This document shows positions 25,110 to 42,562 of a stretch of 64,000 nt of DNA, piece by piece. The DNA comes from Nitrospirota bacterium (lineage in GTDB: Bacteria > Nitrospirota > UBA9217). The position numbers and the translations under genes were made by a program. A model generated the notes under the pieces. It saw nothing but the letters and a program-made list of their open reading frames with translations. It made no database searches and had not been told where the DNA came from. The first letter of the stretch is position 1. Every line of letters begins with the position of its first letter. The DNA lies in assembly GCA_029858565.1 (NCBI GenBank), contig JAOUEV010000002.1, forward strand, positions 102,428 to 166,427, read 5' to 3'.

Positions 25110-26348
25110 CTACGGCAATGACGGTGAAGAAAGCAGGTAACTGTAGAGAAAAGCAGGGACCATGCGTCCGGTGACGAATGGATACAGATAAAGCCCCCAG
25201 ACTGCAGTGAGGCAAAAGAGAATACTAAAGACCTTTCGGGATCGGCCAGAGCCCATGGTCAAAGATGCAAGCGAGTACGCGATCAGTAGATAGGCAAATG
25301 GCAGCACCGCAAAGGCTGAATAGAGGAACACCGGACGCTTCACCAGGATGAACTGTAAGTACGATGAAGCAAAGAGCAGCAAGACCAGGGGGAGGCTCCG
25401 CTCTCTGCGTTGATACGCATAATACAGCCCATAGACCGCAGCAGGTATGGTCAGGAGCCAGATCGGCGGATTGCTCATGAAGGTGAAGAACTTTCCCCAC
25501 CCGGCATTCACGAAGATCGGTTCGCCGTGTATCAGCGGCTTGACGAACCAGTGCCAGGGAACTGATGGCGAAGAACTAAAGAATTTATCAACAAAGGAAT
25601 CAAGCGCCATGGCCTGGAGGGTATGGTAGGCGTCCTTTTGCCATATGATGAAGTCGAGTAGGTTGGACCCCCGTTTGAACCAGGGATACATCAGGAGTAA
25701 GTAAACGCCTCCAGCGACCACGCCTGACGACGCAAGGTAAGTTGAGCTGAGGATTCGGTCTTGCCCGTCACGGTTCGACCAGATCCGGAGGAGAAGATAG
25801 GCGAAGACAGCGAGAGTCGGCAGGACAAAATACCATTTGCCGGAAAGCGCCAGTCCGAGGGGGATCCCTGCCCATGCCAGTGCGCGCTCGTTCCCCTGCA
25901 TATACAGGGCGATCGCGTAGACAAAGAGCAGGAAGAAGAAGATCGGAATTATTTCCATGAAGTTGGTGCGAGATAGGGAAATATGGAAAGGCTCGATGGC
26001 AAAGAAAAGGCCGGAGAGCCAGGCGACGCGCCGGTCCTCGAAGAGTCGCAGGGCAAGCAGCAAGAGCATCAGCACGGAGAGGCTACCGAAGAGGACGTTC
26101 GGCAGCCGCCAGCCATAGGCATTGTTTCCAAAGAGTTTGATGCCGATCGCGGTCACATGGAAGTTCAAGGGCGGATGGAGCCAGACGACCGGGGCGTAGA
26201 GGCCGTTCTTCTGGAAGTTCTCTGCAGCGGGGATGAACTGGAATTCATCGCCGATGACGTATGGCGGTTCGCCGACGCTCCAGACGCGAAGGGCAAAGGC
26301 CAAGAGAAACAGCAGCAGCACGGTATTCCGATTGTTAAAACGTTCCAT
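25110..26348 (-). CDS. GT-C glycosyltransferase family 39, protein O-mannosyltransferase (PMT)-like
   Basis: Loop-1 signature DEFQFIPAAENF...HPPLNFHVTAIGIKLFGNNAYGWRLPNVLFGSLSVLMLLLLALRLF matches the bacterial Pmt pattern DE..F..A....HPPL.K..A.G..LFG.N..GWR...A.FG. Polytopic, 412 aa. Confidence 0.75.
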   Translation of the reverse strand: MERFNNRNTVLLLFLLAFALRVWSVGEPPYVIGDEFQFIPAAENFQKNGLYAPVVWLHPPLNFHVTAIGIKLFGNNAYGWRLPNVLFGSLSVLMLLLLALRLFEDRRVAWLSGLFFAIEPFHISLSRTNFMEIIPIFFFLLFVYAIALYMQGNERALAWAGIPLGLALSGKWYFVLPTLAVFAYLLLRIWSNRDGQDRILSSTYLASSGVVAGGVYLLLMYPWFKRGSNLLDFIIWQKDAYHTLQAMALDSFVDKFFSSSPSVPWHWFVKPLIHGEPIFVNAGWGKFFTFMSNPPIWLLTIPAAVYGLYYAYQRRERSLPLVLLLFASSYLQFILVKRPVFLYSAFAVLPFAYLLIAYSLASLTMGSGRSRKVFSILFCLTAVWGLYLYPFVTGRMVPAFLYSYLLSSPSLP

Positions 26349-27285
26349 CAGCCTTCCTCAGGTCTGAGATGAATTCGACGGCATGGGTGCCGGAGACGGT
26401 CAGAAGGTCGCAGGTGAGCTTTCCGCGCAGGAGCGGGAGGAGCATCCCGCGCTCCTCTGCCGAGACGCTGTCAGCCTGGAGATTGACGATCACCGGCTCT
26501 TTCAGTCCGGGGAAGTCCTGGAAGCGCATGATCCTGACCGAGATCCCTTCCGCAATGGTCATCCTGAAGCTTCCGCCTGAAGATTCCACGGTCTTGCTGT
26601 TCCCGAGCACTGAGGCGACCGTCTCCCACGCAGTGTCCGAAATGAGGTGATAGACCTTGCGGACCATGCCCGACCGGACGGCCTGGTGCACGTAGTTCCC
26701 GGCTACGATGTGGTACTCCGGCCGTTTTGGACAGTGGTCCGGGTAGGAGTGTTCGAGGATGAGCCTGTTGAGCCGCGCGTAGTCGTCAGCGCTGTTGCGT
26801 GGTATCGGGACCGAGAACGAGTCTGTCAGGGCCAGGTAGCCGGCAAGGCTCGTGATCTGCCCGGATGGATCGGGAAGCCCTTTTCTCAGGAACAGGGGAT
26901 AAAGGCTGAATCGCCTCAGGACGTCAGTGTTCAAGCCCTTGATCGTACAGGAGAAGGTGTCCTGTACGCTTCCCTGCAGGTCCGTCCTGAGCGCATCGCA
27001 GAGCCGGTTCAGGCTTGCCGTATCTCTGAATTCAGTGTCCTGGAACTCATCGGTCCTGTCCTCGATGTCAGCATTCAGATGCCTGTCTATGAGCACGAGC
27101 GTCCTGCCGTGCATCCCCTGCTCGCGCCAGACAGCAAAAGCATCTTGGGGAACGTTCACCTGCCTGACCAGCGGGGAGGGCAGGATCGTCCGGTGCGATG
27201 CGCCGTATTGCTGCAGGAACAGCAGGACACTGATGCAGAACAGGAGCGATATTGCTATGACCGCGATCTTCGATTCCTTGCTCAT
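26335..27285 (-). CDS. membrane-anchored protein of an uncharacterised GT39-associated family (member 1)
   Basis: N-terminal TM anchor. Shares EPVIVN(L/V).(A/D) ... VSG(T/S) blocks with the proteins at 38801..39508 and 41120..42562. Overlaps the downstream GT39 gene by 14 nt. Confidence 0.5.
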   Translation of the reverse strand: MSKESKIAVIAISLLFCISVLLFLQQYGASHRTILPSPLVRQVNVPQDAFAVWREQGMHGRTLVLIDRHLNADIEDRTDEFQDTEFRDTASLNRLCDALRTDLQGSVQDTFSCTIKGLNTDVLRRFSLYPLFLRKGLPDPSGQITSLAGYLALTDSFSVPIPRNSADDYARLNRLILEHSYPDHCPKRPEYHIVAGNYVHQAVRSGMVRKVYHLISDTAWETVASVLGNSKTVESSGGSFRMTIAEGISVRIMRFQDFPGLKEPVIVNLQADSVSAEERGMLLPLLRGKLTCDLLTVSGTHAVEFISDLRKADGTF

Positions 27286-28697
27286 CTTGATGTCCCGAGT
27301 GAGACCGCTGCCCTTGCGTACGCGGCCAGCTCGTTCATGGACCGCACCTTGGAGAGCCGATTGAGGATATATCCGGGCCGCAGGTAGTACTTCCTGACGG
27401 CCTTGTGATGGAGACCGTCAATCTCCTGCCTGGTCAGAGTGTGGCCTTTGACGACCGCGGAACCGTAAGCATATTCGAACAGGCAGCTGTCAGCCGGGTC
27501 CTTGGTTCCGAACAGTCCGTTCTCGACCGCGTACCGGAAGAATGCCGTGCCCGGGAAGGGCGTGGCAACGAAGAAGTTGGCGAAGTCGGTCCTCAGGTCA
27601 CGGGCCAGTCGCATGGTCTGCTCCGCGGTCCCGGTCGTCTCCCAGGGGAGGCCGGTCATGTAGTAGGCAAAGGAAGCGATGCCCGTGCCGCGGATGAGCC
27701 GCACGGAATCCCTGATCTGCTCCACGGAAACCTTCTTGCCGATCTTGTCGAGGATCTCCTGGCTGCCGCTCTCGATGCCGAGGCTGATGAGCGAGCAGCC
27801 CGCCTCCTTCATGAGCGTGAGCGTTCCCTGGTTGATGTTGTCCGCCCGCATGTTCGAGGCCCAGGTGAACCGCAGGCCCGATGCACGGATTGCCTGGCAA
27901 AGCCGCCTCACCCACCCGTCGTCGAAGTTGAAGACATCGGACCAGAAGATGAAGTCCTCGATTCCGTAGGTCCGCAAGCAGTGCCGGACCTCGTCGAGGA
28001 TGTTCTCCGGGCTACGCATCCTGACCTTGCGGCCCGAGACCGGCGTTGCCAGGCAGAAAAAACAGTTGTACGGGCAGCCGCGGGAGCACTTGATGATGCC
28101 CTGGGGCCTGCCCTTGTCCGGCCGGACATAGCGACGGTTATCGATGAGGTGGCGTGCAGGGAACGCCAGGGCATCGAGATCGCTCTGGAACGGCGCATCA
28201 TCGTTCCGGAGGACCTCTTCGCCCCGTCTCCAGGTTATGCCGTGAACCGTTTCCAGGGACTCCCCGGAGACGATCCTTTTGATCAGCGGCTCGGGCTCAC
28301 TGCGCAGCAGAATGTCCACCTCGGGATGGGCCCGCAGGACCTCACGGTCAAAGACCAGGAAATGAGCTCCCTTGGCGATGATCGTCAGGCCCGGCAGGGC
28401 CTTTTTCGCCTCCCTGCATACGGTCAGGTCGGCCAGGAGCGTTGGTGTCGTCGTGCTCAAAACCAGAAGGTCCGGCTTATATTCACGCAGGATAGCTGTA
28501 AATGCGGCCATATCAAGTCTGCTTGCCGGACAGTCCAGGACCTGGCACTCAGCCCCGGCAGCCTCTGCGGACGCCGCCATGTACAGGAGGTCTGTGGGCG
28601 GAAGGGTCGGCGCGATCGGAACTTTACCGGTCGGGACCTGGCATCTGTCCTCGCGGTTAATTAGCCCGGTAGGCGGATATGCAAAGAGAACCTTCAT
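27282..28697 (-). CDS. B12-binding (class B) radical SAM enzyme
   Basis: N-terminal cobalamin-binding-like domain (LVLSTTTPTL). Radical SAM cluster CSRGCPYNCFFC. ~470 aa. Confidence 0.85.
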   Translation of the reverse strand: MKVLFAYPPTGLINREDRCQVPTGKVPIAPTLPPTDLLYMAASAEAAGAECQVLDCPASRLDMAAFTAILREYKPDLLVLSTTTPTLLADLTVCREAKKALPGLTIIAKGAHFLVFDREVLRAHPEVDILLRSEPEPLIKRIVSGESLETVHGITWRRGEEVLRNDDAPFQSDLDALAFPARHLIDNRRYVRPDKGRPQGIIKCSRGCPYNCFFCLATPVSGRKVRMRSPENILDEVRHCLRTYGIEDFIFWSDVFNFDDGWVRRLCQAIRASGLRFTWASNMRADNINQGTLTLMKEAGCSLISLGIESGSQEILDKIGKKVSVEQIRDSVRLIRGTGIASFAYYMTGLPWETTGTAEQTMRLARDLRTDFANFFVATPFPGTAFFRYAVENGLFGTKDPADSCLFEYAYGSAVVKGHTLTRQEIDGLHHKAVRKYYLRPGYILNRLSKVRSMNELAAYARAAVSLGTSR

Positions 28698-28700
28698 AGC

Positions 28701-30119
28701 TCAATCCTGGATCGGAAGGCGGCCCACGATACGAGACCGTTCCCGCATGGTCTCCGCGTCTATGTTGCCGGCCAAATAGTCAGCGACGAGGAAACCTTTG
28801 CCGATAGCATTGTGTGCGTTGTTGTAATCGCTTGAGGCCTCTCTTCCACAGAGGACTATGCCGGAATTTTCAAAGAAAGCCTCGATCCTGTCCTGGGCCT
28901 GATATCGCTCATGGTTCAGCACGGGATATGCACCCGGGCAGCGAACGTTGAACGCCCGGAGGATATCGTTCCTGCCGAACCATCCGAGCTCGAGGACAGC
29001 CTCGGTAAGCACCTGGTCGAACTGCTCATTTGACATAGTATCATAACGGCTGCCGTGATCGCAAATAACATCGCACAGGATGATCGCCTGCCCATCAGGG
29101 CAGAGTTCGGGTGAGAACTGGTCGAATGAAGATAGTCTGTTGAAAATGATATGTTCTTCCGGGAATATGATCACCCTCGCCGGGAGCTGGAAATTCCTGA
29201 CCGCAAGGATGCCGAGCCGCATGGTTCTGGACGGGAAAGCTTCGGCGAGCGGCATGATGGGCGAGGCAAGCGGGGCGGCAAGGTATCCGATCAATGTCCT
29301 GTTGGATATCGTGCTGACCATACGATCGGCGACCAGGTGGTGCTCGCGGCCGTTCTTTTCGTAGGAAATGTGGAAGGGGCCTTTGATCGTCTCTGCCTCG
29401 ATCCGCCTGATGTTCGCGGTGAGCTCGATCACCTGCCCCTGTGACCGGACGAATTCTGCCATCGCATCGGGGATGCGGCCGAATCCCTGCCTTGGGTAAT
29501 AGAACATGCTGACGCCGGGAAGCGACCGACCCCTCAAAAATCGCTTCAGCATTGTGCCAATCGTCGGAAGTTCGAAGCGGATCCGGGCAAAATCCTCATG
29601 CAGGTCTTTTGTTCCCCAGACCTTCCTGATCATCGGAAAGGCGACCATTTCGCTGAAAGGCCTGCCGAAGGAATGCAGGATGATGTCCTCAAAGGTAGTG
29701 TTATCAGTCCGGCGGGAGCTGAGCATTCTGAGAACGGCCTGTGAGCGGGCACGCAGCCAGCCTGCGGCGAAGACCGTGGTAAATTTCAGGCTTGATGCAC
29801 TGCACATGTTCCGGAGTTTCGGGGGATAGGAGTATACGGTCCCGTTAAAGTAGACCCCGTGCTCATTCTCCAGTTCGAGGAGGTCAATTCCCGGCAGTCC
29901 GCGGATCTTCTCCACGATGCCCGGGAGCTGCGGTGAGAGGCGATGCGGGCCGATATCGAATCGGAGACCGTCGTGCTCCAGTGTTCGTGAAAGCCCTCCG
30001 ACTGCCGGCGCTGCCTCAAGCAGGGTCACCTCGAGGTTCTTGCGCCCGCATAGGCCCCAGGCAACGGAGAGGCCGGAGCATCCAGCACCAATGATAACGA
30101 TCCGTGTCTTGTGCATCAT
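28701..30119 (-). CDS. FAD-dependent oxidoreductase (amine-oxidase/PPOX/UDP-galactopyranose-mutase-like fold)
   Basis: Dinucleotide-binding motif IVIIGAGCSGLSVA...LLEAAPAVGG at the N-terminus. GPHRLSP resembles the UGM GPHIF segment. Precise subfamily not resolved. Confidence 0.7.
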   Translation of the reverse strand: MMHKTRIVIIGAGCSGLSVAWGLCGRKNLEVTLLEAAPAVGGLSRTLEHDGLRFDIGPHRLSPQLPGIVEKIRGLPGIDLLELENEHGVYFNGTVYSYPPKLRNMCSASSLKFTTVFAAGWLRARSQAVLRMLSSRRTDNTTFEDIILHSFGRPFSEMVAFPMIRKVWGTKDLHEDFARIRFELPTIGTMLKRFLRGRSLPGVSMFYYPRQGFGRIPDAMAEFVRSQGQVIELTANIRRIEAETIKGPFHISYEKNGREHHLVADRMVSTISNRTLIGYLAAPLASPIMPLAEAFPSRTMRLGILAVRNFQLPARVIIFPEEHIIFNRLSSFDQFSPELCPDGQAIILCDVICDHGSRYDTMSNEQFDQVLTEAVLELGWFGRNDILRAFNVRCPGAYPVLNHERYQAQDRIEAFFENSGIVLCGREASSDYNNAHNAIGKGFLVADYLAGNIDAETMRERSRIVGRLPIQD

Positions 30120-31531
30120 GATCTTCCGCCGAGCAGCATCTTGACTCCCATGCCGATCTTGCGGCCTAGCTGGCCGAACCGGAGATGGGTGATATCGCTC
30201 CAGGCTTCCTTGGCCACAAAGGAGGGGGCGAGATAGAACTCCCGCATCAGGCCGTCCCGGATGTCCGTGAAGGCCCTGTCCAACGCATCGCCCCGCCAGG
30301 ATGGCAGCCGGAAATCCTTGACCGGGTGCAGCACGAATTCCTGCCAGTGGTCCCGGTCATAGACGCCGCTCTTCACGAGCTCGAAATAGAAGTCTGAGAA
30401 GGGGACCGGCAGGAGCGTGTTCATCAGGATGAAGTCCGGCTTGATGAGCTTGATAAAATCGCGAGTTGTCCAGGCCTCCTCGGGGGTCTGGTTCGGGAAC
30501 CCGATGATGAAATAGGCCAGGGACTCCAGCTTGTGGCGGTGCAGGATCTCGAAACCGCGGAGGATATCGTCGACCGTGGTTCCCTTGTTGATGTACTGCA
30601 GGATCCTCGGGTCATGGCTTTCGACCCCTGCCGTGAGCCGGAAACAGCCGGCCTCCTTCATGGCCGCTGCCATCTCGTCGTCAAAGGGCTTCAAACGGGC
30701 CCTCGTGGACCAGCGGAACTTCAGGCCGCGCTGAAGGATCTTGGAGCAGATCTCGTTGACCCGCGATTTGCTGATGTTGAAGGTGTAGTCCAGGATGTGG
30801 ATCTCGTCGAATCCCAGCGACAGGATCTCCTCGATCTCGTCCACGATCCGGTCGGCGCTCTTCGTCGCGTAATACCGGGGCACGTTGCAGAAAGTGCAGC
30901 GGAACGAGCAGCCCCGCGACGCGGTCATGGTGGTCATGACATGCCGGTCCGAGAGGGAGACGTATTTCCTGATGTCGAGCCGCTTCCGGTCCGGGAAGGG
31001 GAAATCATCCATGTTCTTGAGGGGATTTGTCCGGGTGGATCTCACCGAGCCGTCCGGCCCCCGGTAGTGCAGATTATCCACGGCGGAGATATCGCCGGTC
31101 CTTCCCGATGCGTACCACTCCACGAAGCGCGGGAAGGTCTGCTCCGCGGGGCCGGTCAGCATGAAGTCGAAGACCGGGTGCGTCATCGTTTCGGAAGGAT
31201 AGAGGTCGGTATGGGTGCCGCCCACGATGATACCGGTCTCCGGCAGGAACTGCTTCACGTCGGCGGCGAGCCTGACGACCCCGTAGAACCGCTCCGTGAC
31301 CGCCGAGATGCCGAGCAGGTCGGGCTTTTCCCGGAGGATGTTCTCGAGCAGGGTCTGGTAGGGCGTATCGTGGGCATCGTAGAGGATGACCTCGTGCTCG
31401 GGACCGATGTTCCGGACGATGGAGAGCAGGCCGAGGGGCGGATACTTGATGAAATCGTCAAGTACATACTGGGGATTGTAATTGAGCACCGATTCCCCTT
31501 CTCGGGGGCTGATGGTGAGGATGATCTTCAT
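30116..31531 (-). CDS. B12-binding (class B) radical SAM enzyme
   Basis: Radical SAM cluster SRGCSFRCTFCNV. B12-like N-terminal domain. Start at MKIILTI (Met18 of the listed ORF), overlapping the upstream gene stop. Confidence 0.8.
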   Translation of the reverse strand: MKIILTISPREGESVLNYNPQYVLDDFIKYPPLGLLSIVRNIGPEHEVILYDAHDTPYQTLLENILREKPDLLGISAVTERFYGVVRLAADVKQFLPETGIIVGGTHTDLYPSETMTHPVFDFMLTGPAEQTFPRFVEWYASGRTGDISAVDNLHYRGPDGSVRSTRTNPLKNMDDFPFPDRKRLDIRKYVSLSDRHVMTTMTASRGCSFRCTFCNVPRYYATKSADRIVDEIEEILSLGFDEIHILDYTFNISKSRVNEICSKILQRGLKFRWSTRARLKPFDDEMAAAMKEAGCFRLTAGVESHDPRILQYINKGTTVDDILRGFEILHRHKLESLAYFIIGFPNQTPEEAWTTRDFIKLIKPDFILMNTLLPVPFSDFYFELVKSGVYDRDHWQEFVLHPVKDFRLPSWRGDALDRAFTDIRDGLMREFYLAPSFVAKEAWSDITHLRFGQLGRKIGMGVKMLLGGRS

Positions 31532-34635: not shown

Positions 34636-34680
34636 GAAAAGCGCCTCCGGTCCTTCCTGGAGGCGCTTTTTTCGTATGGA
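34636..34680. terminator. bidirectional rho-independent terminator between convergent genes
   Basis: Hairpin gcgcctcc-ggtccttcct-ggaggcgc with ttttttcg downstream on the plus strand and a T-run (aaaagaaaa on plus) on the minus strand. Coordinates approximate to +/-2 nt. Confidence 0.7.
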
Positions 34681-34687
34681 GCCGGTC

Positions 34688-35113
34688 TCAGGGCTTGACG
34701 AGGAACCACAGGCCATCCATCCCATGGCCCTTTCTGTCTCCCGGCTTCTTGTCCCCGGCGAAATTATAGAGCGGCATGCCCTTATAGGCCAGATGATCCT
34801 GGTCGTTGTCGGTGCGGTGGAAGGATACGAAATCCGACTGCTTGAGCCCCCTGGACAGGGATATCTCCTCGGCCGTATAGCAGTAGACCGGCCAGGTTTG
34901 CGTGCAGGAACCCGTGCATTCGCTTTTTCCGGGTCCGTCCTTCTTGTAATAATACAGCGCCCGGCCGTTGGAGTTCGTCAGGTACTTCCCCAGCTTCTTG
35001 TCGACCGCGATCTTGACCAGTTCCTTTTGCTCCTGCGCGGCAGCGATGCCTGCCATTGGCCCTGCAAGAAACAGAACTGCCACGATCGCCCCCACCACAG
35101 CTTGTTTGCTCAT
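34688..35113 (-). CDS. secreted lipoprotein_15/COG4315-family repeat protein
   Basis: Signal peptide, and two copies of the family motif G.xLYx(F/Y)xxD: GRALYYYKKDGPG and GMPLYNFAGDKKPGD. Confidence 0.7.
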   Translation of the reverse strand: MSKQAVVGAIVAVLFLAGPMAGIAAAQEQKELVKIAVDKKLGKYLTNSNGRALYYYKKDGPGKSECTGSCTQTWPVYCYTAEEISLSRGLKQSDFVSFHRTDNDQDHLAYKGMPLYNFAGDKKPGDRKGHGMDGLWFLVKP

Positions 35114-35231
35114 ACGTGCCCCCTCATGTGCTCTCTGAAAGATCGTCCATCGTACGGAATAAGCATATCATACTGTTTCTAAACTGTCAAAACCACGGTC
35201 CTGACGCGGTCCTGAACGGGCATGGCGGTTT

Positions 35232-37505
35232 TCACCTCCCCTTCAGGGAATCCCGAAGCATAGGGTATTCTTTCTTCGCGAGCGGGTGCCCGGCCTTTGC
35301 CGCCGTGCGCAGCACCCGGAGCGCTTGCACTGGATGTCCATACTGCCGCAATACCATGCCATGCCAGTACAGGGACTCCCGGGAGCCGTCCTGCGCCCAG
35401 CGGCCAAAGAGGCGCAGGATGGGGTCATCAAGGATGATCAGCGGCGGATGCGCGCCGGCAGTGGACAGATAGAGCAGAGCGCCCTCCCGGTACCGTCCTG
35501 CCCTGCTCAGCGCGGCAGCCAGGTAGATCTTTCCTTTCACATAGTCCGGCTGCAAGGCAGCGAGCCGTGCAAGATGGTCAACAGCCTTCTGCGGCTCATC
35601 GCTCTCGAGGCACGCACGGCCGAGGAAGAGGTGTCCGTCCGCATCGTCATAGTACCGGAAAAGGCGCTCGACAGGGGCTTCCTCGCCGGTCATGCAGCCG
35701 AGCAAGGCGAGGACCTCGGGATCACCGGGACTCCTCCGGAGCGCCTCGCGCAGGTACTGAACGGCTTCCTCGCGCTTCTTCCGGAGAGTGGCTATGCGGC
35801 CGAGGTGGTAGAGCGGCTCCGGGTTCCGGCCGTTCAGGGGATCGAAGCGGATGCCTTCACCGGCCAGCGCCGTCAGGAGGTGCTCAGCCTCGTCCAGCCG
35901 GCTGAGCTCGATCAGCAGCAGCGCCCGGTCAAACCGCGCTGAAGGGGTATCCCCGCTGCGCGAGGAGAGCAGATCGACGGCGCCGGCGAGCAGCGTTGAC
36001 GAGTCCGCAGTCAGTCCGGCCGGCCTGCCGGATCCCATCCTCCATGGGGAGGCCGCAAGCATTTGGGCGGTCTTTTGGAGCGCTGTTGGATGGTCAAGTG
36101 CGTCGCGTGCCTGCATCGCCTCCGGAAGGAGGGACGCTGTTCGCGCAATACCCTCCCAGAGGTGGCGATCATCGCGCATGCGGTCGCTTGGGAGCGACAG
36201 GACGAGCGCAAGGGGCAGGAAGACGCTGATGGCGACGAGCCTGCCGCGTTTATGGGTTAGGAGCCATGACAGGCCGAGAACGGCAAAGTAGATGAAGAAG
36301 GGGTAGAGGCCCACCCGCTGCCGGTCCGTTGCATAGGTCAGGGCCATGAGGGCTGCCTGGTTAAGGAAAACCGCATAGGCGAGGAAATGCTGTCTCCAGG
36401 AAAGGGAAGCGGCTGCCATGCCCACGAGCGCCAGGGCGGAAAGCGGGGCAAAGGGGAAGAACGGCATGCCGCGTTTCTCGAGGACCTCGTCCGCGGACCA
36501 GGCGGTCGCAAGGTCGTACCATCGGTAGCTGTGGAACAGGAGGAAGAGGCGGCGGGCCGTGAGCGCAAGGAACCTGCCCGGATGGTCCGACAGGTAGGCA
36601 GCAGCCTTCCCGGCCCAGAACCTGTTCGCCTCGGTCGGGGAAATGCTGCTCCCGGCCACGGCCCGGGCCACCTGGCGGTAGACGGCATGCTCGTAGTCGC
36701 TCTCCCCCGGGAACTGGTCAGCCATATCATTGATGAGCGGGGGGTAGGCTGCCCGCGTGCCCTCGGACAATGGATTGTTGCCGTCGAAGAAGACGGTGCC
36801 CGGGCTCATGAACCACAGGGAGACCTGCCCCTGGAGGAGGTAGTTCCTGATACCGATGAACAGGAACCCCATGATCACGGGGAGGAGGAAGAGCATGATC
36901 CCGGGCAGCGCCTGCCGAAGGCCCCGGTGGCGCAGGACGAAGTACAGCGGCACGATCAGGATCAGGGGAAAGAAGGTAGGACGCGTCAGGATGCAGAGGG
37001 TCAATGAAATGCCTGCAGCGGCCGCGCTCAGGGGATCCCGCCGGCCGGCGAAGTAGACTAGCGCCACCAGGAAAAAGAGCATGAAGGGCTCCGGTTCGAA
37101 GACATACCCGAAGATCACCACGCTCCTGCTGAGCAGGAGCACGACGGCGCCTCCCAGGGAGAGGGCGCGGCCGGCATGGCGGCGGAGGATCAGGTAGGTG
37201 AGCGCGGCGGCGAGCGAGAGGACACTGATATGCATCCAGAGCATGGTCCCGAGGGGGTCCGCCATGAACCGGAACGCGGCGATGTGGAGGCCGAGATAGA
37301 GGGGGCTGAAGTCCAGGAGCCGCTCGGGAGCCATCGCGCTGCCGAGGTACTGCAGGGCGGCTGTGGGATACTTGGAGAACTGGCTCGCGGCGTCCTGGAG
37401 GCCGAATATCTGCAGGGAGAAGAGGAGGGCCGCGGCGAGCGCGATCGCGGACGCGATGAGGCGATCGTTGCGGCCTGCCGCTCGCTGTTCTGGGGTCAGC
37501 TCCAT
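35232..37505 (-). CDS. polytopic membrane protein with C-terminal TPR repeats (possible GT-C-like or polymerase/ligase-like)
   Basis: Roughly 12 predicted TM helices in the first ~450 aa, then TPR-like helical repeats (LYHLGRIATLRKKREEAVQYLREALRRSPGDPEVLALLG). Lacks the DD..Y motif of the TMTC-like paralogues. Confidence 0.6.
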   Translation of the reverse strand: MELTPEQRAAGRNDRLIASAIALAAALLFSLQIFGLQDAASQFSKYPTAALQYLGSAMAPERLLDFSPLYLGLHIAAFRFMADPLGTMLWMHISVLSLAAALTYLILRRHAGRALSLGGAVVLLLSRSVVIFGYVFEPEPFMLFFLVALVYFAGRRDPLSAAAAGISLTLCILTRPTFFPLILIVPLYFVLRHRGLRQALPGIMLFLLPVIMGFLFIGIRNYLLQGQVSLWFMSPGTVFFDGNNPLSEGTRAAYPPLINDMADQFPGESDYEHAVYRQVARAVAGSSISPTEANRFWAGKAAAYLSDHPGRFLALTARRLFLLFHSYRWYDLATAWSADEVLEKRGMPFFPFAPLSALALVGMAAASLSWRQHFLAYAVFLNQAALMALTYATDRQRVGLYPFFIYFAVLGLSWLLTHKRGRLVAISVFLPLALVLSLPSDRMRDDRHLWEGIARTASLLPEAMQARDALDHPTALQKTAQMLAASPWRMGSGRPAGLTADSSTLLAGAVDLLSSRSGDTPSARFDRALLLIELSRLDEAEHLLTALAGEGIRFDPLNGRNPEPLYHLGRIATLRKKREEAVQYLREALRRSPGDPEVLALLGCMTGEEAPVERLFRYYDDADGHLFLGRACLESDEPQKAVDHLARLAALQPDYVKGKIYLAAALSRAGRYREGALLYLSTAGAHPPLIILDDPILRLFGRWAQDGSRESLYWHGMVLRQYGHPVQALRVLRTAAKAGHPLAKKEYPMLRDSLKGR

Positions 37506-37550: not shown

Positions 37551-38819
37551 CTAGCGATGGGGCGTATAGAACTCGGCAAGCGGCTTCATCCACGCATGGT
37601 CGAGCGCCTGGAACGTGGACATCGGATACATGATTGCCGAGAGCGCGAGAACGAACGCCAGGTACACGATGACCGTCCTGGCCGAAAGGGCTCTCCGTTC
37701 CAGGAGCGCGTCAACAGCATAGGACGACAGCGTGAACGCGAACACCAGCAGCGGCGTCGCGATGAAGACCCAGATGGAGCGGGTGGTCAGCAGGAGCGGG
37801 AGATAGGAGGCAAAGAATATGGCGAGCACATACCCGAGCTCGAACGTCCTGCTGCGGAGCCATTCTCTGACGGCAAAAAAGAGGGCGGGAAGCGTCAGCA
37901 CCCACGCAAGGAGATTGCCCATCGCGATGCTCAGGTACGCCTTGCCCTGGTGGAACACGAAATCCACCCAGGCAACAGGCCAGAGGAACCATTGGTAGGC
38001 CCGGTGCGAGAGGATGTCCTCGGTATAGGGCGTGCCCTTCCAGAAGTACTGGTGCTTGACGAGCCAGGCCTGCAGGCCGGCGAAATCCCCGAGCGAATAC
38101 CCCCGCTGGAGCCAGGGGAGGTAAAGGGCCGTATAGATGGCAACAGGAACGACGAGGTAGGCGGAGAAGGCCGTCAGCAGCCGTTTCCCCGGCTGCCGCT
38201 GTTCTGCGCGGTCCCTGCACAGCCAGGGATAGAGCAGATAGGAGGCCGCGGAAACGGCCCAGGGGAAGAGGCCGTTCCACTTCGACGCGGATGCGATGCC
38301 GTACAGCGCCCCGGAAAGATAGCAGAGAAGCACATTATCCTTTCTGATGGCGTGAAGCGAGGCGAGGGTCCCTGCGACGATGAAGAAGGAGGTGGTCGTT
38401 TCCTGAAAGGCCACCCGCGAAAGATAGATGTGGAGAGGGTCGACAGCGAGAAAGAAGGCGGCGATATAGGCGGCGGTCCGCTTTCCGAAGAGGCCGTGGA
38501 CCAGGTATCCCAGCAGCAGGACCGCGGCGCTCCCGAAGAGCAGGCTGCCGCCCCGCAGGCCCCATGCACTGTATCCGCCGAAGAGCTTGCCCGCGGTCAG
38601 GATGACGATGTTCCGCAGGGGCGGATGGTACCACATCACCTGGCCGAACAGCCCGCTGGTCACATAGTTCAGGGCCGCGGACGCCGTGCCGACCTCGTCA
38701 TCGGTCGGCGGCTGCGCAGGGAGCCCGTAGGCGCGCACGAAGAGTGCCAGGGCGAAGATCCCCCACAGTACGGCATGATGGTTGCCCCACAGTCGCCTCA
38801 TCATCCGCGACTGCTCCAT
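37551..38819 (-). CDS. GT-C glycosyltransferase family 39, PMT-like (second copy)
   Basis: DDEVGTASAALNY...WYHPPLRNIVILTAGKLFGGYSAWGLRGGSLLFGSAAVLLLGYLVHGLF, the same loop-1 signature as the copy at 25110. 422 aa, polytopic. Confidence 0.75.
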   Translation of the reverse strand: MEQSRMMRRLWGNHHAVLWGIFALALFVRAYGLPAQPPTDDEVGTASAALNYVTSGLFGQVMWYHPPLRNIVILTAGKLFGGYSAWGLRGGSLLFGSAAVLLLGYLVHGLFGKRTAAYIAAFFLAVDPLHIYLSRVAFQETTTSFFIVAGTLASLHAIRKDNVLLCYLSGALYGIASASKWNGLFPWAVSAASYLLYPWLCRDRAEQRQPGKRLLTAFSAYLVVPVAIYTALYLPWLQRGYSLGDFAGLQAWLVKHQYFWKGTPYTEDILSHRAYQWFLWPVAWVDFVFHQGKAYLSIAMGNLLAWVLTLPALFFAVREWLRSRTFELGYVLAIFFASYLPLLLTTRSIWVFIATPLLVFAFTLSSYAVDALLERRALSARTVIVYLAFVLALSAIMYPMSTFQALDHAWMKPLAEFYTPHR

Positions 38820-39508
38820 GCTTTTTCGAATTGCCGGAGACGCTTCCGGTCCCCGTCGACGACCTCCGGTTCATCGCGGCTTCCCGAGACCACGATCAGC
38901 CGGATGTCGGGACACTTCTCGCGAAGCCCGGCGAGCACCCTTCCGGGGTCCTCGCCGAACCCGAAGTACCCTGCATCGACGTTCACGATGACCGGCTCGC
39001 GGATCGCCGGCATGGCGTCGAGCGTTGTTACCGTCAGGGGCATGTCGTGGGTGTATCCCCGGACGATCTCCCCGGACACGGAAAAGGCGAAATCGCCTTC
39101 GAACTGGACGAGGCGCTCCCGCAGCACCGGCGCCGGAAGGACCACGGTAACCGTTCGCACCATTCCCGTGCGGTTCGCGATGAACAGCCAGTTATGGCTG
39201 TCGAGGCCCTTCTCGTAGAGCGGCCGCACGTCCCCCACCCTGACCGGGAAGGGCATGGTGACGTTCTCCTCGCGGGGAAGGTAGTCCACCAGGTTCAGGA
39301 AACGGTTGAGGTGCACCACCCGCGCGCCCCAGAGGCCGCTCCGCTGGTAGACCACGTAGATGTCCTTCTGCGAATCGACACGGACCATCAACGGTCCCTG
39401 TGCACTCCTGGCCGGGAACACCCGAGCAGCTTTCGCGCTGCCGTCCATCCAGAGGAAAAGAGCGAGGGCGGCGATCACGACCGCGATATGGAAGGTTTGT
39501 CTCGTCAT
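38801..39508 (-). CDS. membrane-anchored protein of the GT39-associated family (member 2)
   Basis: N-terminal TM anchor. Shares REPVIVNVDAGYFGFGEDPG and ...IVVSGS blocks with members 1 and 3. Overlaps the downstream GT39 gene by 19 nt, the same gene order as the first pair. Confidence 0.55.
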   Translation of the reverse strand: MTRQTFHIAVVIAALALFLWMDGSAKAARVFPARSAQGPLMVRVDSQKDIYVVYQRSGLWGARVVHLNRFLNLVDYLPREENVTMPFPVRVGDVRPLYEKGLDSHNWLFIANRTGMVRTVTVVLPAPVLRERLVQFEGDFAFSVSGEIVRGYTHDMPLTVTTLDAMPAIREPVIVNVDAGYFGFGEDPGRVLAGLREKCPDIRLIVVSGSRDEPEVVDGDRKRLRQFEKAWSSRG

Positions 39509-39537: not shown

Positions 39538-40710
39538 CTAGGGGAGGAGCCGCTCTTTCCTGAGGAATTGGAGGACCTCGCCTGCGATACGGCGGTGGCC
39601 GTCAGCGGTCCAGTGGTGATCGGAACGATCGACGGTGTAGAGGGACAGGCCCTGCCGGCACTGGGTGCGCGAAAAGGGGAGGAGGTCCAGGTAGGGGATC
39701 CGCTCCCTCCGGCTGAAGGCCGACAACGCCGCGCTCAACGCGGAGTTGCGTTCATAGGTGCCTTCCTTGACCCCCTGGAGCTGGACCCTTCCGGAGCGGT
39801 CCTCCTCCTTCTCCGGGATGAACACCAGGACGAAAGCCGCTCCCGACGCCTCCGCGGCCTTCCTGCTCTCCCTGATCAGCCTGAAGGCGATCTCCCGGAC
39901 CTGCTCCGGCGGATTGGTCAGGACCGGGATGTCCCCGATGTCCTGACTATATTCTTCCGCGAGGCCGAGGTTGATCAGCAGCAGCCGTATCTCGGGATTG
40001 CTGTTGAGCCGTCCCATGATGAACTGGTAGGTGTGCGTATGGAACCGCAGGAACTTCTTGACCTTCCCGAAGAGGGTCCGGGGCTTTCCGAAGGTCTTGC
40101 GGTCCGTCTGCTCGCTCCGGGGGACCGGCACGTTCTTGAGGACCAGTTCGCCGCCCTCGAGCATGAAGAGGGGCTTGGGAGAGTAATACTGCACCGAACT
40201 GGCGATCTCGTCGAGGTCGTTCGCTGCGGTGAACCCGAAGAGCACGATGTTTGGCTGAAGCGAGAGCCCCGCGTGCTTGAGCCAGAGGTGCGCCTGGTCG
40301 GTCCCGTAGCCGGTGGTCCCTCCATTCAGGACCTCGACCGCAGGGGGAAGTTCCTTCTGCAGGACCGCGGACAGCACGTTGTCATCGGAAACGCCGTACC
40401 CCCAGAAGAACGAATCCCCGACGAGGAGGATCCTCTTCGTTCCCCGCGGCTTCTCCTTGGTGGTCTCAGGGCCGCGCAGCCCGAGGCTGTTGTGACGAAC
40501 CTGGAAGAAGCGGTCGCGGGCGAACTCGAAATGGACTCCCTCGTCCTTGAGCGGCTTGTTGACCCATCCCATGACCGGGTCGTAGGTCTCGTGGTAGGGC
40601 TGGATCCTGAGCTTGTGCGGGGCGAACAGGGCAAGTGACAGTTCCAGCAGCAGGAAGAACGTCGCGATCGACGTGAAGAGGAGGAGGATGTTGTTCAATC
40701 GGGGTCTCAT
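39538..40710 (-). CDS. membrane-anchored SGNH/GDSL-family hydrolase
   Basis: N-terminal TM helix. Block I LLVGDSFFWGYG. Block V DHHWTADGHRRIA. Confidence 0.75.
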   Translation of the reverse strand: MRPRLNNILLLFTSIATFFLLLELSLALFAPHKLRIQPYHETYDPVMGWVNKPLKDEGVHFEFARDRFFQVRHNSLGLRGPETTKEKPRGTKRILLVGDSFFWGYGVSDDNVLSAVLQKELPPAVEVLNGGTTGYGTDQAHLWLKHAGLSLQPNIVLFGFTAANDLDEIASSVQYYSPKPLFMLEGGELVLKNVPVPRSEQTDRKTFGKPRTLFGKVKKFLRFHTHTYQFIMGRLNSNPEIRLLLINLGLAEEYSQDIGDIPVLTNPPEQVREIAFRLIRESRKAAEASGAAFVLVFIPEKEEDRSGRVQLQGVKEGTYERNSALSAALSAFSRRERIPYLDLLPFSRTQCRQGLSLYTVDRSDHHWTADGHRRIAGEVLQFLRKERLLP

Positions 40711-41119
40711 GTTGTTAGGAACGGGCCGGCAACGAGCCCGGCAGGATGCCGGCCGGCCCGTCCTGGCCGGTGTTCCGCCCCTGTCGGTCTCCTGTTGTCG
40801 CGCACGGTATCAATCTAATGAATGCGCCCCCCCTTGTCAATCGATATTATGCCGCACCGGGCAGCGGTCGGGTAGGCTGATGATGCGGCCGCGGCATGTC
40901 CGGCGAAGACCGCGCAGGAAGCGCCCACCCCTGGTCCGAGCGATGCAACCATGGGCAAAACAGTGATGAAAAGGCAGGGTCGCTATGGTATAATGAACAG
41001 CGTGATGAGAGGATTCAGAGGACCGGTACGCTGATCCGCCTCGCGGGAATCGCAGACAGCTGTTCTCGCCGTCTTCGTCAGCCTTGTCAGCAGGATATCT
41101 GCAGCAATCTACTCGATAA

Positions 41120-42562
41120 ATGATGCATTCAACAGTACAATCGAAACAGCAGGCCATCCTGCCGGTGGTTCTGCTGGTCATGTTCCTCTCCGGCGCCTGT
41201 ACGCAGCGACCTGCAGGGACAGAACCCCTGCGCCTGCTCGGGACCGATCCCCTCACCGCAGTGTCCGTGACCGGGTACCACGAGGTCCTTGTAACCTGGA
41301 TGCAAAGGGGCCTTCGGAACATGACGGCGGTCCATGCGGGGCCGAAGGACGGACTTGCATTCGTCCCGCCTGCCCGGGTGAAGACGATCAAGGATCTCCT
41401 GCAGAACGGGGGCTCCGGCACGGATGTCGGGGACCTGGTCACTGCCGACAACTATCTGTTCCTGGCCCAGCGCCTCGGTCTGATACGCCGCGTCTTCTGG
41501 GTCATTCCCTACCACCATGTCGACTATATCAATGCAGAACTGCGCGTCCAGGCCTTTCTCCGCAACGAGACATCCCATTTCAGTCCGCAGGATGTGGGCT
41601 CCATGCGGTTCCGGAACGGTTGCGTCTCCGGGACCCTTGCCGGCATCGAGGTGCATGTCTGCAGTCCGACGACTCTGCCGCGCCTCGCAGAACCGGCCGT
41701 TGTCACGATCGATCCCGGGTTCTTTCCGCTCTATGCGGCGAACCGGGGCCCGAGCGGTCTCGGCGCGACGAAGGAGTTCTTCGACCTCATGGCAATTAAG
41801 CGGATCGGCACCCGGGCAGTGTCGGTCGCCGCTTCCCCGGAGTTCCAGGGGATGCGGGGGTATCTGTCAGAAGAGATCGTCAGCATCCTGAAGGACCCGG
41901 AAATCCTCCAGAGCACGCAGCCGCCTGACCTCTGGGCCCTCCGTGAGCAGGCTGACGGGATGCTGACGCGCGGGGACGTGAAGGAGGCGGCCGGGCATCT
42001 GGAAAAGCATGGTGCTGCGTTTCCCGCCGATCCCTATTTGCATCTGATGCGGTGGACGGCCCAGGCCCTTCTGTCGAAGAGGGCGTCGGCGCTCAATGCG
42101 CTGACGGCTCTCTGCGTGAAGGATCCCGTGCTGTGCAGCGGCATCGTCGATGCCGGCGTCCTGCTCCGGGAACAGGGCGACCTGGCCGGAGCGGAGGAAT
42201 TCCTGAGGAAAGCGGTCTCCCTGCAGCAGCTGCGTCCCGGCCGCGCGCGACGGGAGTACGCGGTCACCCTCTACCAGGCAGGAAAGTATGCCGATGCGCA
42301 GCGGGAGGCGTCACCCCTGGTTGCCGATCCGGCATACACCGTCGCGGGCGGTCTGCTGCTGGGAGATTGCGCGTACGCATTGCAGCAGAACGACGAGGCC
42401 GTGCGCCGGTACGAAGGAGCGCTCAGTTCCTACCGGGAGGCCGGAGGATACCGACTGAGCAAACGGGAGCAGGAAAGCATCAGCAGGCTGAAGTCGCTCT
42501 ATCAGCGGAGGAACGACAAGCGCGGCCTGCGGACCCTGGAGGGAACACCTGCCTTTGAATAG
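41120..42562 (+). CDS. putative lipoprotein: GT39-associated-family domain fused to C-terminal TPR repeats (member 3)
   Basis: Lipobox-like FLSGAC. N-terminal domain shares RRV...VDY, EPAVVTIDPGFF and VSVAAS blocks with members 1 and 2. C-terminal TPR-like repeats (AEEFLRKAVSLQQ..., YEGALSSYREAG). Confidence 0.6.
   Translation: MMHSTVQSKQQAILPVVLLVMFLSGACTQRPAGTEPLRLLGTDPLTAVSVTGYHEVLVTWMQRGLRNMTAVHAGPKDGLAFVPPARVKTIKDLLQNGGSGTDVGDLVTADNYLFLAQRLGLIRRVFWVIPYHHVDYINAELRVQAFLRNETSHFSPQDVGSMRFRNGCVSGTLAGIEVHVCSPTTLPRLAEPAVVTIDPGFFPLYAANRGPSGLGATKEFFDLMAIKRIGTRAVSVAASPEFQGMRGYLSEEIVSILKDPEILQSTQPPDLWALREQADGMLTRGDVKEAAGHLEKHGAAFPADPYLHLMRWTAQALLSKRASALNALTALCVKDPVLCSGIVDAGVLLREQGDLAGAEEFLRKAVSLQQLRPGRARREYAVTLYQAGKYADAQREASPLVADPAYTVAGGLLLGDCAYALQQNDEAVRRYEGALSSYREAGGYRLSKREQESISRLKSLYQRRNDKRGLRTLEGTPAFE

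Follow-up and report, generated by a model that had tools for sequence, protein, structure and literature searches.

What are the partner proteins encoded immediately 5' of two glycosyltransferase genes in this Nitrospirota genome, and what might they do for these enzymes? In the window analyzed (the whole 64,000-nt stretch), two short PMT-like GT39 genes are each preceded by a gene for a small anchored protein (partners A and B), and a third protein with the same domain (partner C) carries TPR repeats (Table 1). Related loci from other genomes are given L numbers, and single homologs P numbers.

Table 1. Genes of the partner region and its surroundings, in window coordinates.
Feature	Position	Strand	Description
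Tetrahaem OmcE homolog	14164-14964	+	Match to 7tfs_A (OmcE), E 1.1e-22
NHL/FG-GAP propeller protein	15001-17787	+	Pfam
Multihaem cytochrome	17791-21747	+	23 CXXCH (motif count)
Multihaem cytochrome	21723-24425	+	12 CXXCH (motif count)
GT39-A	25110-26348	-	412 aa; short PMT-like GT-C glycosyltransferase
Partner A	26335-27285	-	316 aa; N-terminal TM helix, degenerate UPF0489-like arginase-fold domain
hyp235 and hyp347	32848-34589	+	Conserved pair; synteny in L001, L004, L007-L010, L012, L019
GT-C-TPR	35232-37505	-	757 aa; GT-C-like membrane protein with C-terminal TPR; orthologs in related loci
GT39-B	37551-38819	-	422 aa; short PMT-like GT-C
Partner B	38801-39508	-	235 aa; TM helix (residues 2-27), degenerate UPF0489-like domain
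SGNH/AlgX-like	39538-40710	-	Esterase or acyltransferase, immediately 5' of partner B; Lipase_GDSL_2 5e-10, ALGX 7.7e-6
Partner C	41120-42562	+	480 aa; lipoprotein-type signal (…FLSGAC27), degenerate UPF0489-like domain, C-terminal TPR repeats
ResB	42555-44036	+	Pfam ResB 5.8e-29; System II cytochrome c haem attachment
CcsA/CcsB	44033-44872	+	Pfam Cytochrom_C_asm 3.6e-32; TIGR03144 CcsB 5e-47
GT-C-TPR, three further genes	44850-46907, 47040-49016, 50004-51983		Four in total with 35232-37505

Gene Pairs and Their Conservation

The two pairs and their overlaps are as the initial annotation described them. The end of the partner gene overlaps the start of the glycosyltransferase gene by 14 nt in pair A, where a Shine-Dalgarno sequence (AGGAAGG) lies 3 nt upstream of the ATG, and by 19 nt in pair B. 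At the second junction another ATG is possible at 38,804, in which case the overlap would be just 4 nt (ATGA) and GGAG would precede the start by 9 nt; with either start, GT39-B overlaps the partner B gene. Both glycosyltransferases pass the Pfam PMT model (PF02366, GA 22.7), GT39-A at 60.7 bits (2.1e-16) and GT39-B at 47.4 bits (2.3e-12), and both match PMT_2 (7e-15 and 2.7e-10, respectively); the two share 30% identity (E 1e-36). The NCBIfam model PrMnsylTfPmt gives GT39-A 63.5 bits, far under its cutoff of 800. An Asp-Glu motif is found in each (D34-E35, in the first loop, in GT39-A; D41-E42 in GT39-B), nearly all of both sequences is membrane-embedded by hydropathy, and GT39-A is without a soluble domain of its own.

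The pairing extends well past the window. Wherever a related locus extends far enough downstream, the short partner form lies directly 5' of a PMT-like gene, a total of 25 out of 25 pairs (23 in 22 other loci plus the two described here) with no exceptions, which is far beyond chance. The genes overlap by 1-20 nt or abut, and even distant short-form members (profile E ~1e-22) are paired in the same way. A GT39-B ortholog follows the partner B ortholog in L001, L003, L004, L006-L012, L015, L018-L022, and L024-L027. The pair also duplicates as a unit: L006 has an A-type and a B-type pair in tandem, each partner with a glycosyltransferase of its own type, and partner and GT39 identities covary over 20 loci (r = 0.84). 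The short form thus has a tight, specific link to PMT-like GT-C genes, and the partner-GT-C module itself appears to be undescribed so far.

The initial annotation tied the whole family to O-mannosyltransferases. This holds for the short form; the TPR-fused paralog goes with ResB/CcsA, and not with a GT39 gene, in the window, L001, and L009.

A Degenerate Arginase-Fold Domain

Homology among the three partners, including the TPR-fused one, had been proposed from their sequences and is upheld by BLASTP (A-B 2e-5, B-C 4e-8, A-C 2e-3) and hhalign (A-B 97.8%, C-B 98.0%, A-C 88.3%). An HMM built from B sequences only matches partner A at 7.5e-13; A also carries a helical insertion of ~90 aa (residues ~89-180). 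The motifs first thought to be shared fared unevenly. The E-P-V block (E171 in 94% of the family, P172 in 88%, V173 in 87%) and the G-x-V-R-x-V block (R118, 94%) are conserved family-wide, but D.G(Y/F)F occurs in B and C only, the VDY of B and that of C are not colinear, and VSG(S/T) lacks family-wide conservation. The B subfamily (27 sequences; column identity averages 48%) has ten invariant polar positions: H66, N68, N72, E99, H105, D155, D178, S210, D212, and E213. Two of these are kept family-wide, D178 (D/N in 87%) and D212 (71%).

That the partners could not be placed in a known family, as was first stated, is correct as far as Pfam and NCBIfam are concerned: neither has a match to the family, which is labeled hypothetical in every source, and all 35 close homologs of partner B are unnamed. 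An assignment can nevertheless be made from predicted structure. For the AF2 model of partner B (pLDDT 91.4), the best Foldseek match in the PDB (E 2.8e-4, prob 1.0, TMq 0.53) is 8brp, the peptide arginase OspR, with plant arginases ranking next; the partner A model (pLDDT 82) has no significant structural match there. OspR is a member of pfam12640, with Mn ligands H12, D39/H41/D43, and D165/D167 (PMC10028609). Bridging sequences point the same way: P0181, a family member by profile (E 1.6e-21), passes PF12640 at 30.6 bits (GA 27), and its alignment to OspR spans OspR residues 6-174. Since the window proteins do not match PF12640 even at E ≤ 5, and a B-family profile finds nothing among PDB sequences, the link to the superfamily rests on these Foldseek matches and bridging members. 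On this basis (one Foldseek family of matches plus the bridging sequences), the three partners are best classified as a divergent, undescribed branch of UPF0489/PF12640.

The superfamily, which includes cytoplasmic RiPP enzymes and human C5orf22, is mostly found without GT39 (PMC10028609).

The metal site sets the partners apart from the known enzymes. Three TPR-fused relatives (P0138, P0177, and P0181) keep all six Mn ligands, as ENH, DxHxD, and DIDLD in the aligned columns. The corresponding positions are P46, D67-x-H69-x-N71, and Q270-x-D272 in partner A (three of six kept); Q47, N68-x-F70-x-N72, and D178-x-G180 in partner B (one); and Y, G-K-G, and D-P-G in partner C (one). Across the whole family these columns are mostly G/S/N, F/H/R/Y, and S/G. 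With so few ligands left, the window copies are probably pseudo-enzymes; their binuclear-Mn site having decayed, they most likely serve as modules that bind polypeptides without catalysis. The invariant polar set of the B subfamily counts against this, since these residues might form a novel active site and not a pocket for binding.

OspR, BipC, and C5orf22 share with the partners an arginase-type α/β/α fold with three metal motifs in the same alignment columns, and both groups go back to enzymes acting on unfolded peptides. Unlike the peptide arginases, the window partners lack three to five of the six ligands and escape the PF12640 model; and whereas the RiPP enzymes are cytoplasmic and lie in RiPP clusters, the partners are membrane-anchored or lipoproteins, and therefore presumably exported, and are paired with GT-C or ResB genes. 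Each of the three has a single N-terminal hydrophobic helix; for the short form, charge bias does not discriminate between the two topologies (mean K+R, 2.7 N-terminal vs. 2.8 C-terminal). Another protein with an arginase fold and a degenerate metal site, the metal-free T. brucei arginase-like protein (PDB 4rhk), is the rank 8 Foldseek match, but it is cytosolic and eukaryotic, with no glycosyltransferase link and no detectable sequence relationship to the partners.

Cytochrome and Glycosylation Genes Nearby

The partner region lies beside a cluster for an OmcE-type conductive cytochrome filament (14,164-24,425, forward strand; 7TFS is OmcE, PMC12954529), a setting that the initial annotation did not mention. 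In a preprint on Desulfuromonadia, OmcE clusters are described beside resB/ccsB, followed by islands of GT2, GT4, GT39, and TPR genes (bioRxiv 10.1101/2025.10.22.684050), and the presence of such islands is said to agree with putative glycan densities on OmcE (bioRxiv 10.1101/2025.10.22.684050; PMC9473688). By gene content, the window region matches these GT39-rich "glycosylation islands" next to Geobacter OmcE clusters: as described there, Geobacter and Geomonas have resB/ccsB, an OmcE subunit, β-propellers, and large multihaem cytochromes, then GT2, GT39, TPR, and methyltransferase genes. The present locus differs in being from Nitrospirota, and the preprint's description is at the cluster level, with no mention of a partner family in the passages covered. 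One related locus (L010) is itself from a Geobacter MAG.

ResB/CcsA is inside the flank in 12 of the 17 loci with at least 5 kb of flank (no ResB is inside the flank in L006, L011, L016, or L021), and multihaem cytochromes are immediate neighbors in the window, L001, L009, L011, L015, L027, L013, and L014. The order in related loci is CcsA, hyp235, hyp347, GT-C-TPR, partner B, GT39-B; hyp347 is a truncated ResB paralog (BLASTP to the window ResB, 6e-14). In L012, ResB and a following partner are translationally adjacent.

The TPR-fused form has signal peptides that end in Cys, in favor of a periplasmic location, and is immediately followed by ResB in all three loci (window, L001, L009), in translational adjacency; in the window the listed TTG start of ResB, which is uncertain, would lie within partner C, giving an 8-nt overlap. 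Other TPR-fused paralogs stand alone between cytochrome genes. Among 144 family representatives, five have TPRs that match PF23914 (TPR_CcmH_CycH, an apocytochrome-chaperone TPR), two above threshold; partner C's own TPR is under the PF23914 threshold. Partner C resembles CcmI/CycH of System I in being a TPR protein genetically coupled to haem-attachment machinery, but it is coupled to System II (ResB/CcsA) and has the additional UPF0489-like domain.

Possible Functions

The reading we tentatively prefer, which we hold at slightly short of an even chance, is that the UPF0489-like domain is a non-catalytic subunit that handles polypeptides in the periplasm while exported cytochromes are glycosylated and matured. 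The analysis shows homology, fold, ligand loss, obligate gene pairing, and genomic context; that the short form is periplasmic, binds peptides, and forms a complex, and that cytochromes are the acceptors, is inferred. The short form and its compact PMT-like GT-C, an enzyme without a soluble domain of its own, are co-translated and probably form a complex. In it, the short form would supply in trans a periplasmic domain for handling the acceptor, which eukaryotic PMTs (MIR domain) as well as TMTC-type enzymes (TPR) hold in cis. The lipoprotein TPR form may do an equivalent job for ResB/CcsA haem attachment. Likely clients would be multihaem cytochromes that have just been exported and are not yet folded (the OmcE-type filament subunit and the giant cytochromes encoded nearby), O-glycosylated with polyprenyl-phosphate sugars from small GT2 enzymes; the small GT2 gene of the window nearest the pairs is at 59,368-60,132, 20 kb off. 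Of the roles first suggested for the partner, a substrate-recruiting subunit is the best fit.

As proposed here for the partner, the MIR domain (PMT1/2) and the TPR array (TMTC1-4, bacterial PMT_2-TPR) are lumenal or periplasmic soluble modules on a PMT-type GT-C core. Within the window, the four GT-C-TPR fusions have no partner gene, and the two domain-less GT39s have one each. The partner, unlike these modules, is a separate polypeptide with a different fold, for which acceptor handling is presumed.

Rather unlikely, but the main rival, is that the partner works as a periplasmic hydrolase, for instance a deacylase or amidohydrolase, whose active site has been remodelled (possibly mononuclear or metal-free), editing the sugar on its polyprenyl-phosphate carrier or after transfer. 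This would follow the GT2, deacylase, and GT-C logic of ArnC/ArnD/ArnT, LgmA/C/B, and FlmF2/NaxD/FlmK. A small GT2, partner, GT-C order is indeed found in L003 and L016, with a small GT2 adjacent in L011 and L015, an arrangement resembling GtrA/B/C and ArnC/ArnD/ArnT, where a third gene also stands with a small GT2 and a GT-C. The partner, however, does not qualify as a multi-TM flippase or as a NodB/YdjC-type deacylase, and ArnD and NaxD have other folds. Acyl-handling neighbors (SGNH/AlgX-like, MBOAT, carbamoyltransferase) would suit a hydrolase; the SGNH/AlgX-like ortholog in L003 adjoins an MBOAT gene. So would the B subfamily's ten invariant polar residues, which lie at or near strand C-termini, and the family-wide conservation of D178 and D212. 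Yet the invariant set is lost in A, in C, and family-wide, while all short forms keep the GT39 pairing, and all characterized arginase-fold enzymes require the metal site, of which three to five ligands are here N, Q, F, G, P, or K. The periplasmic hydrolase of the initial annotation is weakened by this loss.

It is improbable that the partner is a factor for the biogenesis or stability of the GT-C, such as a membrane chaperone or obligatory structural subunit, with no role in acceptor or sugar recognition. The strict adjacency, duplication as a unit, and correlated divergence of the pairs would all be expected of such a factor, and the most conserved residues look structural rather than pocket-lining: R118 at a strand start, E171 just before one, and G61, A111, and P125. 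This leaves unexplained both the TPR-fused paralogs, coupled to ResB or alone between cytochrome genes, and the descent from a peptide-modifying enzyme with a cleft that binds unfolded peptides.

An equally poor prospect is that GT-C and partner modify lipid, LPS, or exopolysaccharide, the cytochrome and ResB neighborhood being island hitch-hiking. Both GT39 proteins fit the broader PMT_2 model about as well as PMT, with weak Agl23 and ArnT-type NCBIfam matches; the island is rich in polysaccharide-type genes (GT2, GT9, SGNH, MBOAT); and the L016 and L017 pairs are amid sugar-modification genes only, plus a CcsA-like ORF at the L017 edge. Against this, ResB/CcsA, of which a genome normally has only one or a few copies, is within a few kilobases in most loci with sufficient flank and translationally adjacent in four (L012, window, L001, L009), and the two TPR-fused relatives that have an intact site and whose neighbors are visible both adjoin multihaem cytochromes.

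A flippase accessory, also suggested at first, finds no support because the protein has a single TM helix.

Two general points count against the preferred polypeptide-handling role: PMT/PMT_2-like GT-Cs can act on lipids or glycans too, and the link to cytochromes is one of neighborhood, in organisms that encode many of them. With their metal site lost and their genes paired with a PMT-like glycosyltransferase (two copies) or with haem-attachment genes (one), the partners nonetheless look like missing protein-handling subunits for decorating exported cytochromes.

The partner and transferase genes

Two genes for PMT-like transferases in the window (GT39-A and GT39-B) are each directly preceded, on the minus strand, by one for a smaller membrane-anchored protein (partners A and B), and a third paralogue (partner C), in which the same N-terminal domain is followed by TPR repeats, lies upstream of ResB. 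The gene pairs and the TPR fusion had been proposed in the initial annotation and were borne out: the partner/GT39 overlaps, put there at 14–19 nt, are 14 nt for the A pair and 19 nt for the B pair, and the third homologue at 41120 does carry the TPR fusion. At the A junction, a Shine-Dalgarno sequence (AGGAAGG) is found 3 nt ahead of the GT39-A ATG. At the B junction, the end of partner B is overlapped from either the listed GT39-B ATG or a second one at 38804, the latter with an ATGA overlap and GGAG 9 nt upstream. The listed start of ResB is a TTG at 42555, giving an 8-nt overlap with partner C; as its match to Pfam starts at residue 31, with no ATG or GTG between the TTG and that point, both start and overlap are uncertain.

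Features of the window, with two partner homologues from related metagenomic or genomic loci (L013, L014; positions within those loci)
Feature	Position	Strand	Description
OmcE filament subunit homologue	14164-14964	+	266 aa; tetrahaem, 4 CXXCH; 7tfs_A, E 1.1e-22
NHL/FG-GAP/BACON propeller, then two multihaem cytochromes	15001-24425	+	928 aa; 1318 and 900 aa, with 23 and 12 CXXCH
GT39-A	25110-26348	-	412 aa; PMT-like GT-C
Partner A	26335-27285	-	316 aa
Radical SAM genes	27282-31582	-	
hyp235 and hyp347	32848-34589	+	conserved pair
hyp168	34676-35182	+	168 aa
GT-C-TPR protein	35232-37505	-	large; C-terminal TPR array
GT39-B	37551-38819	-	422 aa; PMT-like GT-C
Partner B	38801-39508	-	235 aa
Partner C	41120-42562	+	480 aa; TPR-fused
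GT-C-TPR proteins	44850-46907, 47040-49016, 50004-51983	+	large; C-terminal TPR arrays
Radical SAM genes	51994-54906, 56226-57296, 60145-61263	+	
Small GT2 nearest the pairs	59368-60132		
P0138	L013, 6001-7818		TPR-fused lipoprotein; complete Mn-ligand set
P0181	L014, 2582-4078		TPR-fused lipoprotein; complete Mn-ligand set

The GT39 assignment made earlier also holds, both proteins passing PF02366 (GT39-A, 60.7 bits; GT39-B, 47.4; gathering score 22.7). They are 30% identical and, by hydropathy, are multi-TM proteins without an appended soluble domain; PMT_4TMC and MIR domains are not reported by Pfam in either. The first extracytoplasmic loop of each carries an Asp-Glu motif (D34-E35 in GT39-A, D41-E42 in GT39-B), and the two motifs align with each other. 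This acidic first-loop motif is essential in yeast Pmt1. Against the NCBIfam equivalog for bacterial Pmt (NF058602; 530 positions, cutoff 800 bits), they reach 63.5 and 31.6 bits, and at 412–422 aa they are shorter than the model. Because these scores are so far under the cutoff, they are called PMT-like GT-C proteins here rather than mannosyltransferases. The four large GT-C-TPR membrane proteins look like a TMTC-like GT-C architecture; their N-terminal halves have no Pfam match, and one has an acidic motif, FDDFEY, after the first TM helix.

The partner family

Homology among the three partners, as first claimed, is weak but significant by BLASTP (A–B, 2e-5; B–C, 4e-8; A–C, 2e-3), with hhalign probabilities of 97.8% for A–B, 98.0% for C–B, and 88.3% for A–C. 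Only part of the motif set on which that claim was built is general: E-P-V and G-x-V-R are conserved family-wide, and "VDY" and "VSG(S/T)" are not. A word-indexed search yielded 35 close relatives for B, five for A, and four for C, all unnamed. When a profile was run exhaustively against 1.84 billion cluster representatives, it matched 999 proteins at E ≤ 1e-3, 520 of them at E ≤ 1e-10. Most members are ~240 aa long; about nine of the top 144 have C-terminal TPR repeats and lengths of 390–605 aa. One B-family member (P0033) carries the JGI label "prepilin-type processing-associated H-X9-DG protein," which looks like a mis-annotation prompted by its N-terminal hydrophobic helix. Sequence models were of little help in classifying the partners: Pfam and NCBIfam gave no match to A, B, or C except for TPR, the 36 close relatives scanned to E ≤ 5 added none, and a B-family profile had no match among PDB sequences at E ≤ 10.

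Structure prediction does place the domain, which the initial annotation had not assigned to any known family. The AF2 model of partner B (pLDDT 91.4) has a TM helix and, after it, an α/β/α domain with the three-layer fold of the arginases. Its best Foldseek matches in the PDB are three chains of the peptide arginase OspR (8brp; E 2.8e-4, probability 1.0, TMq 0.53), followed by plant arginases and a T. brucei arginase-like protein. OspR belongs to Pfam family PF12640 (UPF0489), and its binuclear Mn site is formed by His12, Asp39/His41/Asp43, and Asp165/Asp167, within the motifs EEHxE, DxHxD, and DIDLD (PMC10028609; PMC12707348). The partner A model (pLDDT 82) follows B in its succession of strands and helices and has an additional helical insertion. 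Foldseek found nothing significant for it (best E 0.013, TM <0.25). The TM helix and the ~90-aa insertion probably account for this, and the result is taken as uninformative rather than as counter-evidence.

More distant relatives bridge the remaining gap. PF12640 was not matched by A, B, C, or 36 close relatives in a Pfam scan to E ≤ 5, and was matched by just two of 144 more distant family representatives. One that passes is P0181 (family profile E 1.6e-21), at 30.6 bits vs. a gathering threshold of 27, and it aligns with OspR residues 6–174. P0181 and two other TPR-fused relatives, P0138 and P0177, are the sole members in the family alignment with the full six-ligand set, as ENH, DxHxD, and DIDLD in single columns. 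In the same columns, partner A has P, D-H-N, and Q-D for motifs 1 to 3 (three of six ligands kept); partner B has Q, N-F-N, and D-G (one of six); and partner C has Y, G-K-G, and D-G (one of six). Across 188 family members, the ligand columns are mostly occupied by non-ligand residues. As PF12640 is now defined the partners fall outside it, on model score and on metal ligands. The fold of the B model, its top match to OspR, the PF12640 score of P0181, and the shared ligand columns nevertheless support common ancestry and fold, with the partners forming a divergent branch of the peptide-arginase superfamily that is for the most part decayed. With three to five of the six Mn ligands lost, hydrolysis of peptide arginine to ornithine with release of urea would not be expected of A, B, or C, to judge from their sequences.

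As to location, nearly all of the TPR forms, partner C included (…FLSGAC27), have an N-terminal signal peptide ending in Cys, which marks them as exported lipoproteins. In the short, membrane-anchored forms (the A and B type), charges flanking the TM helix are balanced, and the positive-inside rule gives no topology; their domain is probably periplasmic, given the exported paralogues and the periplasm-facing chemistry of GT-C enzymes.

Conservation of the gene neighbourhood

A scan of a genome collection with the partner B family alignment gave five close loci, and one of metagenomes gave 12 more, of which eight were new and usable. The neighbourhood set comprises 22 distinct related loci, with members as distant as a profile E of ~1e-22. 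In all 22, a short partner is immediately upstream of a PMT-like gene, for 23 pairs, or 25 of 25 with the window included; the junctions mostly overlap by 1–20 nt or abut. Lineages that conserve the pairing range from Nitrospirota to a Geobacter MAG. One locus (L006) has an A-type and a B-type pair in tandem, and the pair has thus been duplicated as a unit. Across 20 loci, identities of partner and of GT39 to the window B pair are correlated (r = 0.84), the partner diverging faster.

The surroundings are also recurrent. A block [C-type TPR partner]-ResB-CcsA-hyp235-hyp347-(GT-C-TPR)-partner B-GT39-B is found in L001, L004, and L007–L009, and ResB/CcsA are within the flank in 12 of the 17 loci having at least 5 kb of it; in L012, the stop codon of ResB and the start of the partner overlap. 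In all three loci with a C-type paralogue (the window, L001, and L009), ResB comes directly after it. In related loci, the hyp235/hyp347 pair always follows CcsA (L001, L004, L007–L010, L012, L019); hyp347, which matches the window ResB by BLASTP (6e-14), is a truncated paralogue of ResB, and hyp235 a single-TM protein without family assignment. The next ORF in the window, hyp168, has an odd composition, is overlapped by a 141-aa ORF on the opposite strand, and is missing from every related locus; it is unlikely to be a gene. Small GT2 genes that may encode polyprenyl-phosphate sugar synthases adjoin the pair in L003, L011, L015, and L016 and are near it in L012. The nearest one in the window has weak matches to ArnC, AglJ, and PpgS-type models.

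The window also has an unusual density of radical SAM genes: three with and one without a B12-binding match, and two SPASM, plus an FAD amine-oxidase-like gene. The best NCBIfam match of one B12-binding gene is HpnJ-like, under cutoff. Homologues of the B12-binding radical SAM and FAD-oxidase genes adjoin the partner-GT39 pair in L006, L009, L010, L012, L015, L019, and L026.

Cytochrome context

The OmcE homologue, which also matches a 218-aa putative multihaem cytochrome (9yuq, 3.5e-19), suggests that this Nitrospirota MAG encodes an OmcE-type nanowire cluster, and the genes following the homologue resemble the "two cytochromes plus β-propeller" pattern of OmcE clusters. G+C content dips to 0.48–0.50 at 12001–16000, a stretch that takes in the OmcE homologue and the first part of the propeller gene, vs. 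0.56–0.64 elsewhere. Giant multihaem cytochromes flank the partner-GT39 pair in L001, L011, and L015 as well. A 2025 preprint (10.1101/2025.10.22.684050) describes OmcE clusters adjoining resB/ccsB in Desulfuromonadia and, in Geobacter-like genera, followed by 15–70 GT2/GT4/GT39, sugar-modification, and TPR genes; the gene content is reported to match the occurrence of putative glycan densities, which are seen on G. sulfurreducens OmcE and lacking in D. soudanensis (see also PMC9473688). The window corresponds, in Nitrospirota, to such a glycosylation island. Association of GT39 with OmcE and resB at the cluster level is thus already in the literature, which on glycosyltransferases with OmcE or nanowires was found to give cluster-level description only, with no mention of the partner. 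No description was found of the partners as a family, of their origin from peptide arginases, of the strict linkage to PMT-like GT-C proteins, or of the ResB-coupled TPR paralogue.

The TPR-fused lipoprotein relatives with intact sites are flanked by giant multihaem cytochromes in both loci with visible context (those of P0138 and P0181; the contigs of P0177 are too short to show its neighbours). The cluster of P0138 includes GBD93327.1 and GBE26624.1. All three are candidate periplasmic peptide arginases; if so, the periplasm would be a new setting for this chemistry. PF23914 (TPR_CcmH_CycH), the domain expected of a CcmI/CycH-type apocytochrome chaperone, is above threshold only in P0138 and another relative, P0159; the best E-value for the C family is 0.018.

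Possible functions

The favoured reading is that the decayed domain is a retired peptide-modifying enzyme, which would have kept its grip on unfolded polypeptide and lost catalysis. Other PMT-type enzymes have an acceptor-side module in cis; the short form, anchored next to a PMT-like GT-C protein without such a domain, would supply the module in trans. The four GT-C-TPR fusions of the window have no partner gene. The TPR-fused lipoprotein could render equivalent service to ResB/CcsA, the shared clients being newly exported apocytochromes. Of the elements of this reading, homology, fold, loss of ligands, the obligate pairing, and the genomic context are shown; the topology of the short form, its complex with the GT-C protein, peptide binding, and the nature of the acceptor are inferred. 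That the dead copies hold unfolded apocytochrome for GT39 (short form) or for the System II haem lyase ResB/CcsA (TPR form), and that the intact-site relatives install ornithine in extracellular cytochromes, is as a joint proposition rather improbable.

The main rival to client handling is that the partner is a remodelled hydrolase. Ten polar residues are invariant in the B subfamily, and a GT2-partner-GT-C gene order would suit such an enzyme, but A, C, and the wider family all keep the pairing without sharing these residues, and this weakens the case. The obligate pairing could also reflect a pure stability subunit of the GT-C protein, or the acceptor might be a non-cytochrome lipid or polysaccharide. 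An ArnD/NaxD-like deacylase, the first idea suggested by the gene order, was downgraded after the ligand analysis: ArnC/ArnD/ArnT-like systems use a catalytically intact NodB/YdjC-type deacylase between GT2 and GT-C, whereas the fold of the partner is of the arginase type and its site has decayed, and no polysaccharide-deacetylase match was found for the partners in Pfam. The role of flippase accessory raised in the initial annotation is rejected on the architecture, a single TM helix with a large globular domain.

Under the client-handling and ornithine proposal, were it true, the partner would be the first dedicated subunit of a bacterial PMT-like enzyme, and the family would include the first System II apocytochrome chaperone and the first peptide arginases with a role outside RiPPs. 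The findings suggest that a separate subunit can furnish compact bacterial GT-C enzymes with an acceptor-side domain, and that cytochrome c biogenesis by System II may be served by a chaperone of its own. For the UPF0489 superfamily, which is poorly understood and includes human C5orf22, they add ~1000 sequence clusters (at 50% identity) and show clearly how an enzyme evolved into a pseudo-enzyme, intact intermediates being still found today. The surface modifications of OmcE-type filaments are thought to be glycans, and a GT39-like transferase with an obligate partner is a concrete, testable candidate gene pair for adding them.
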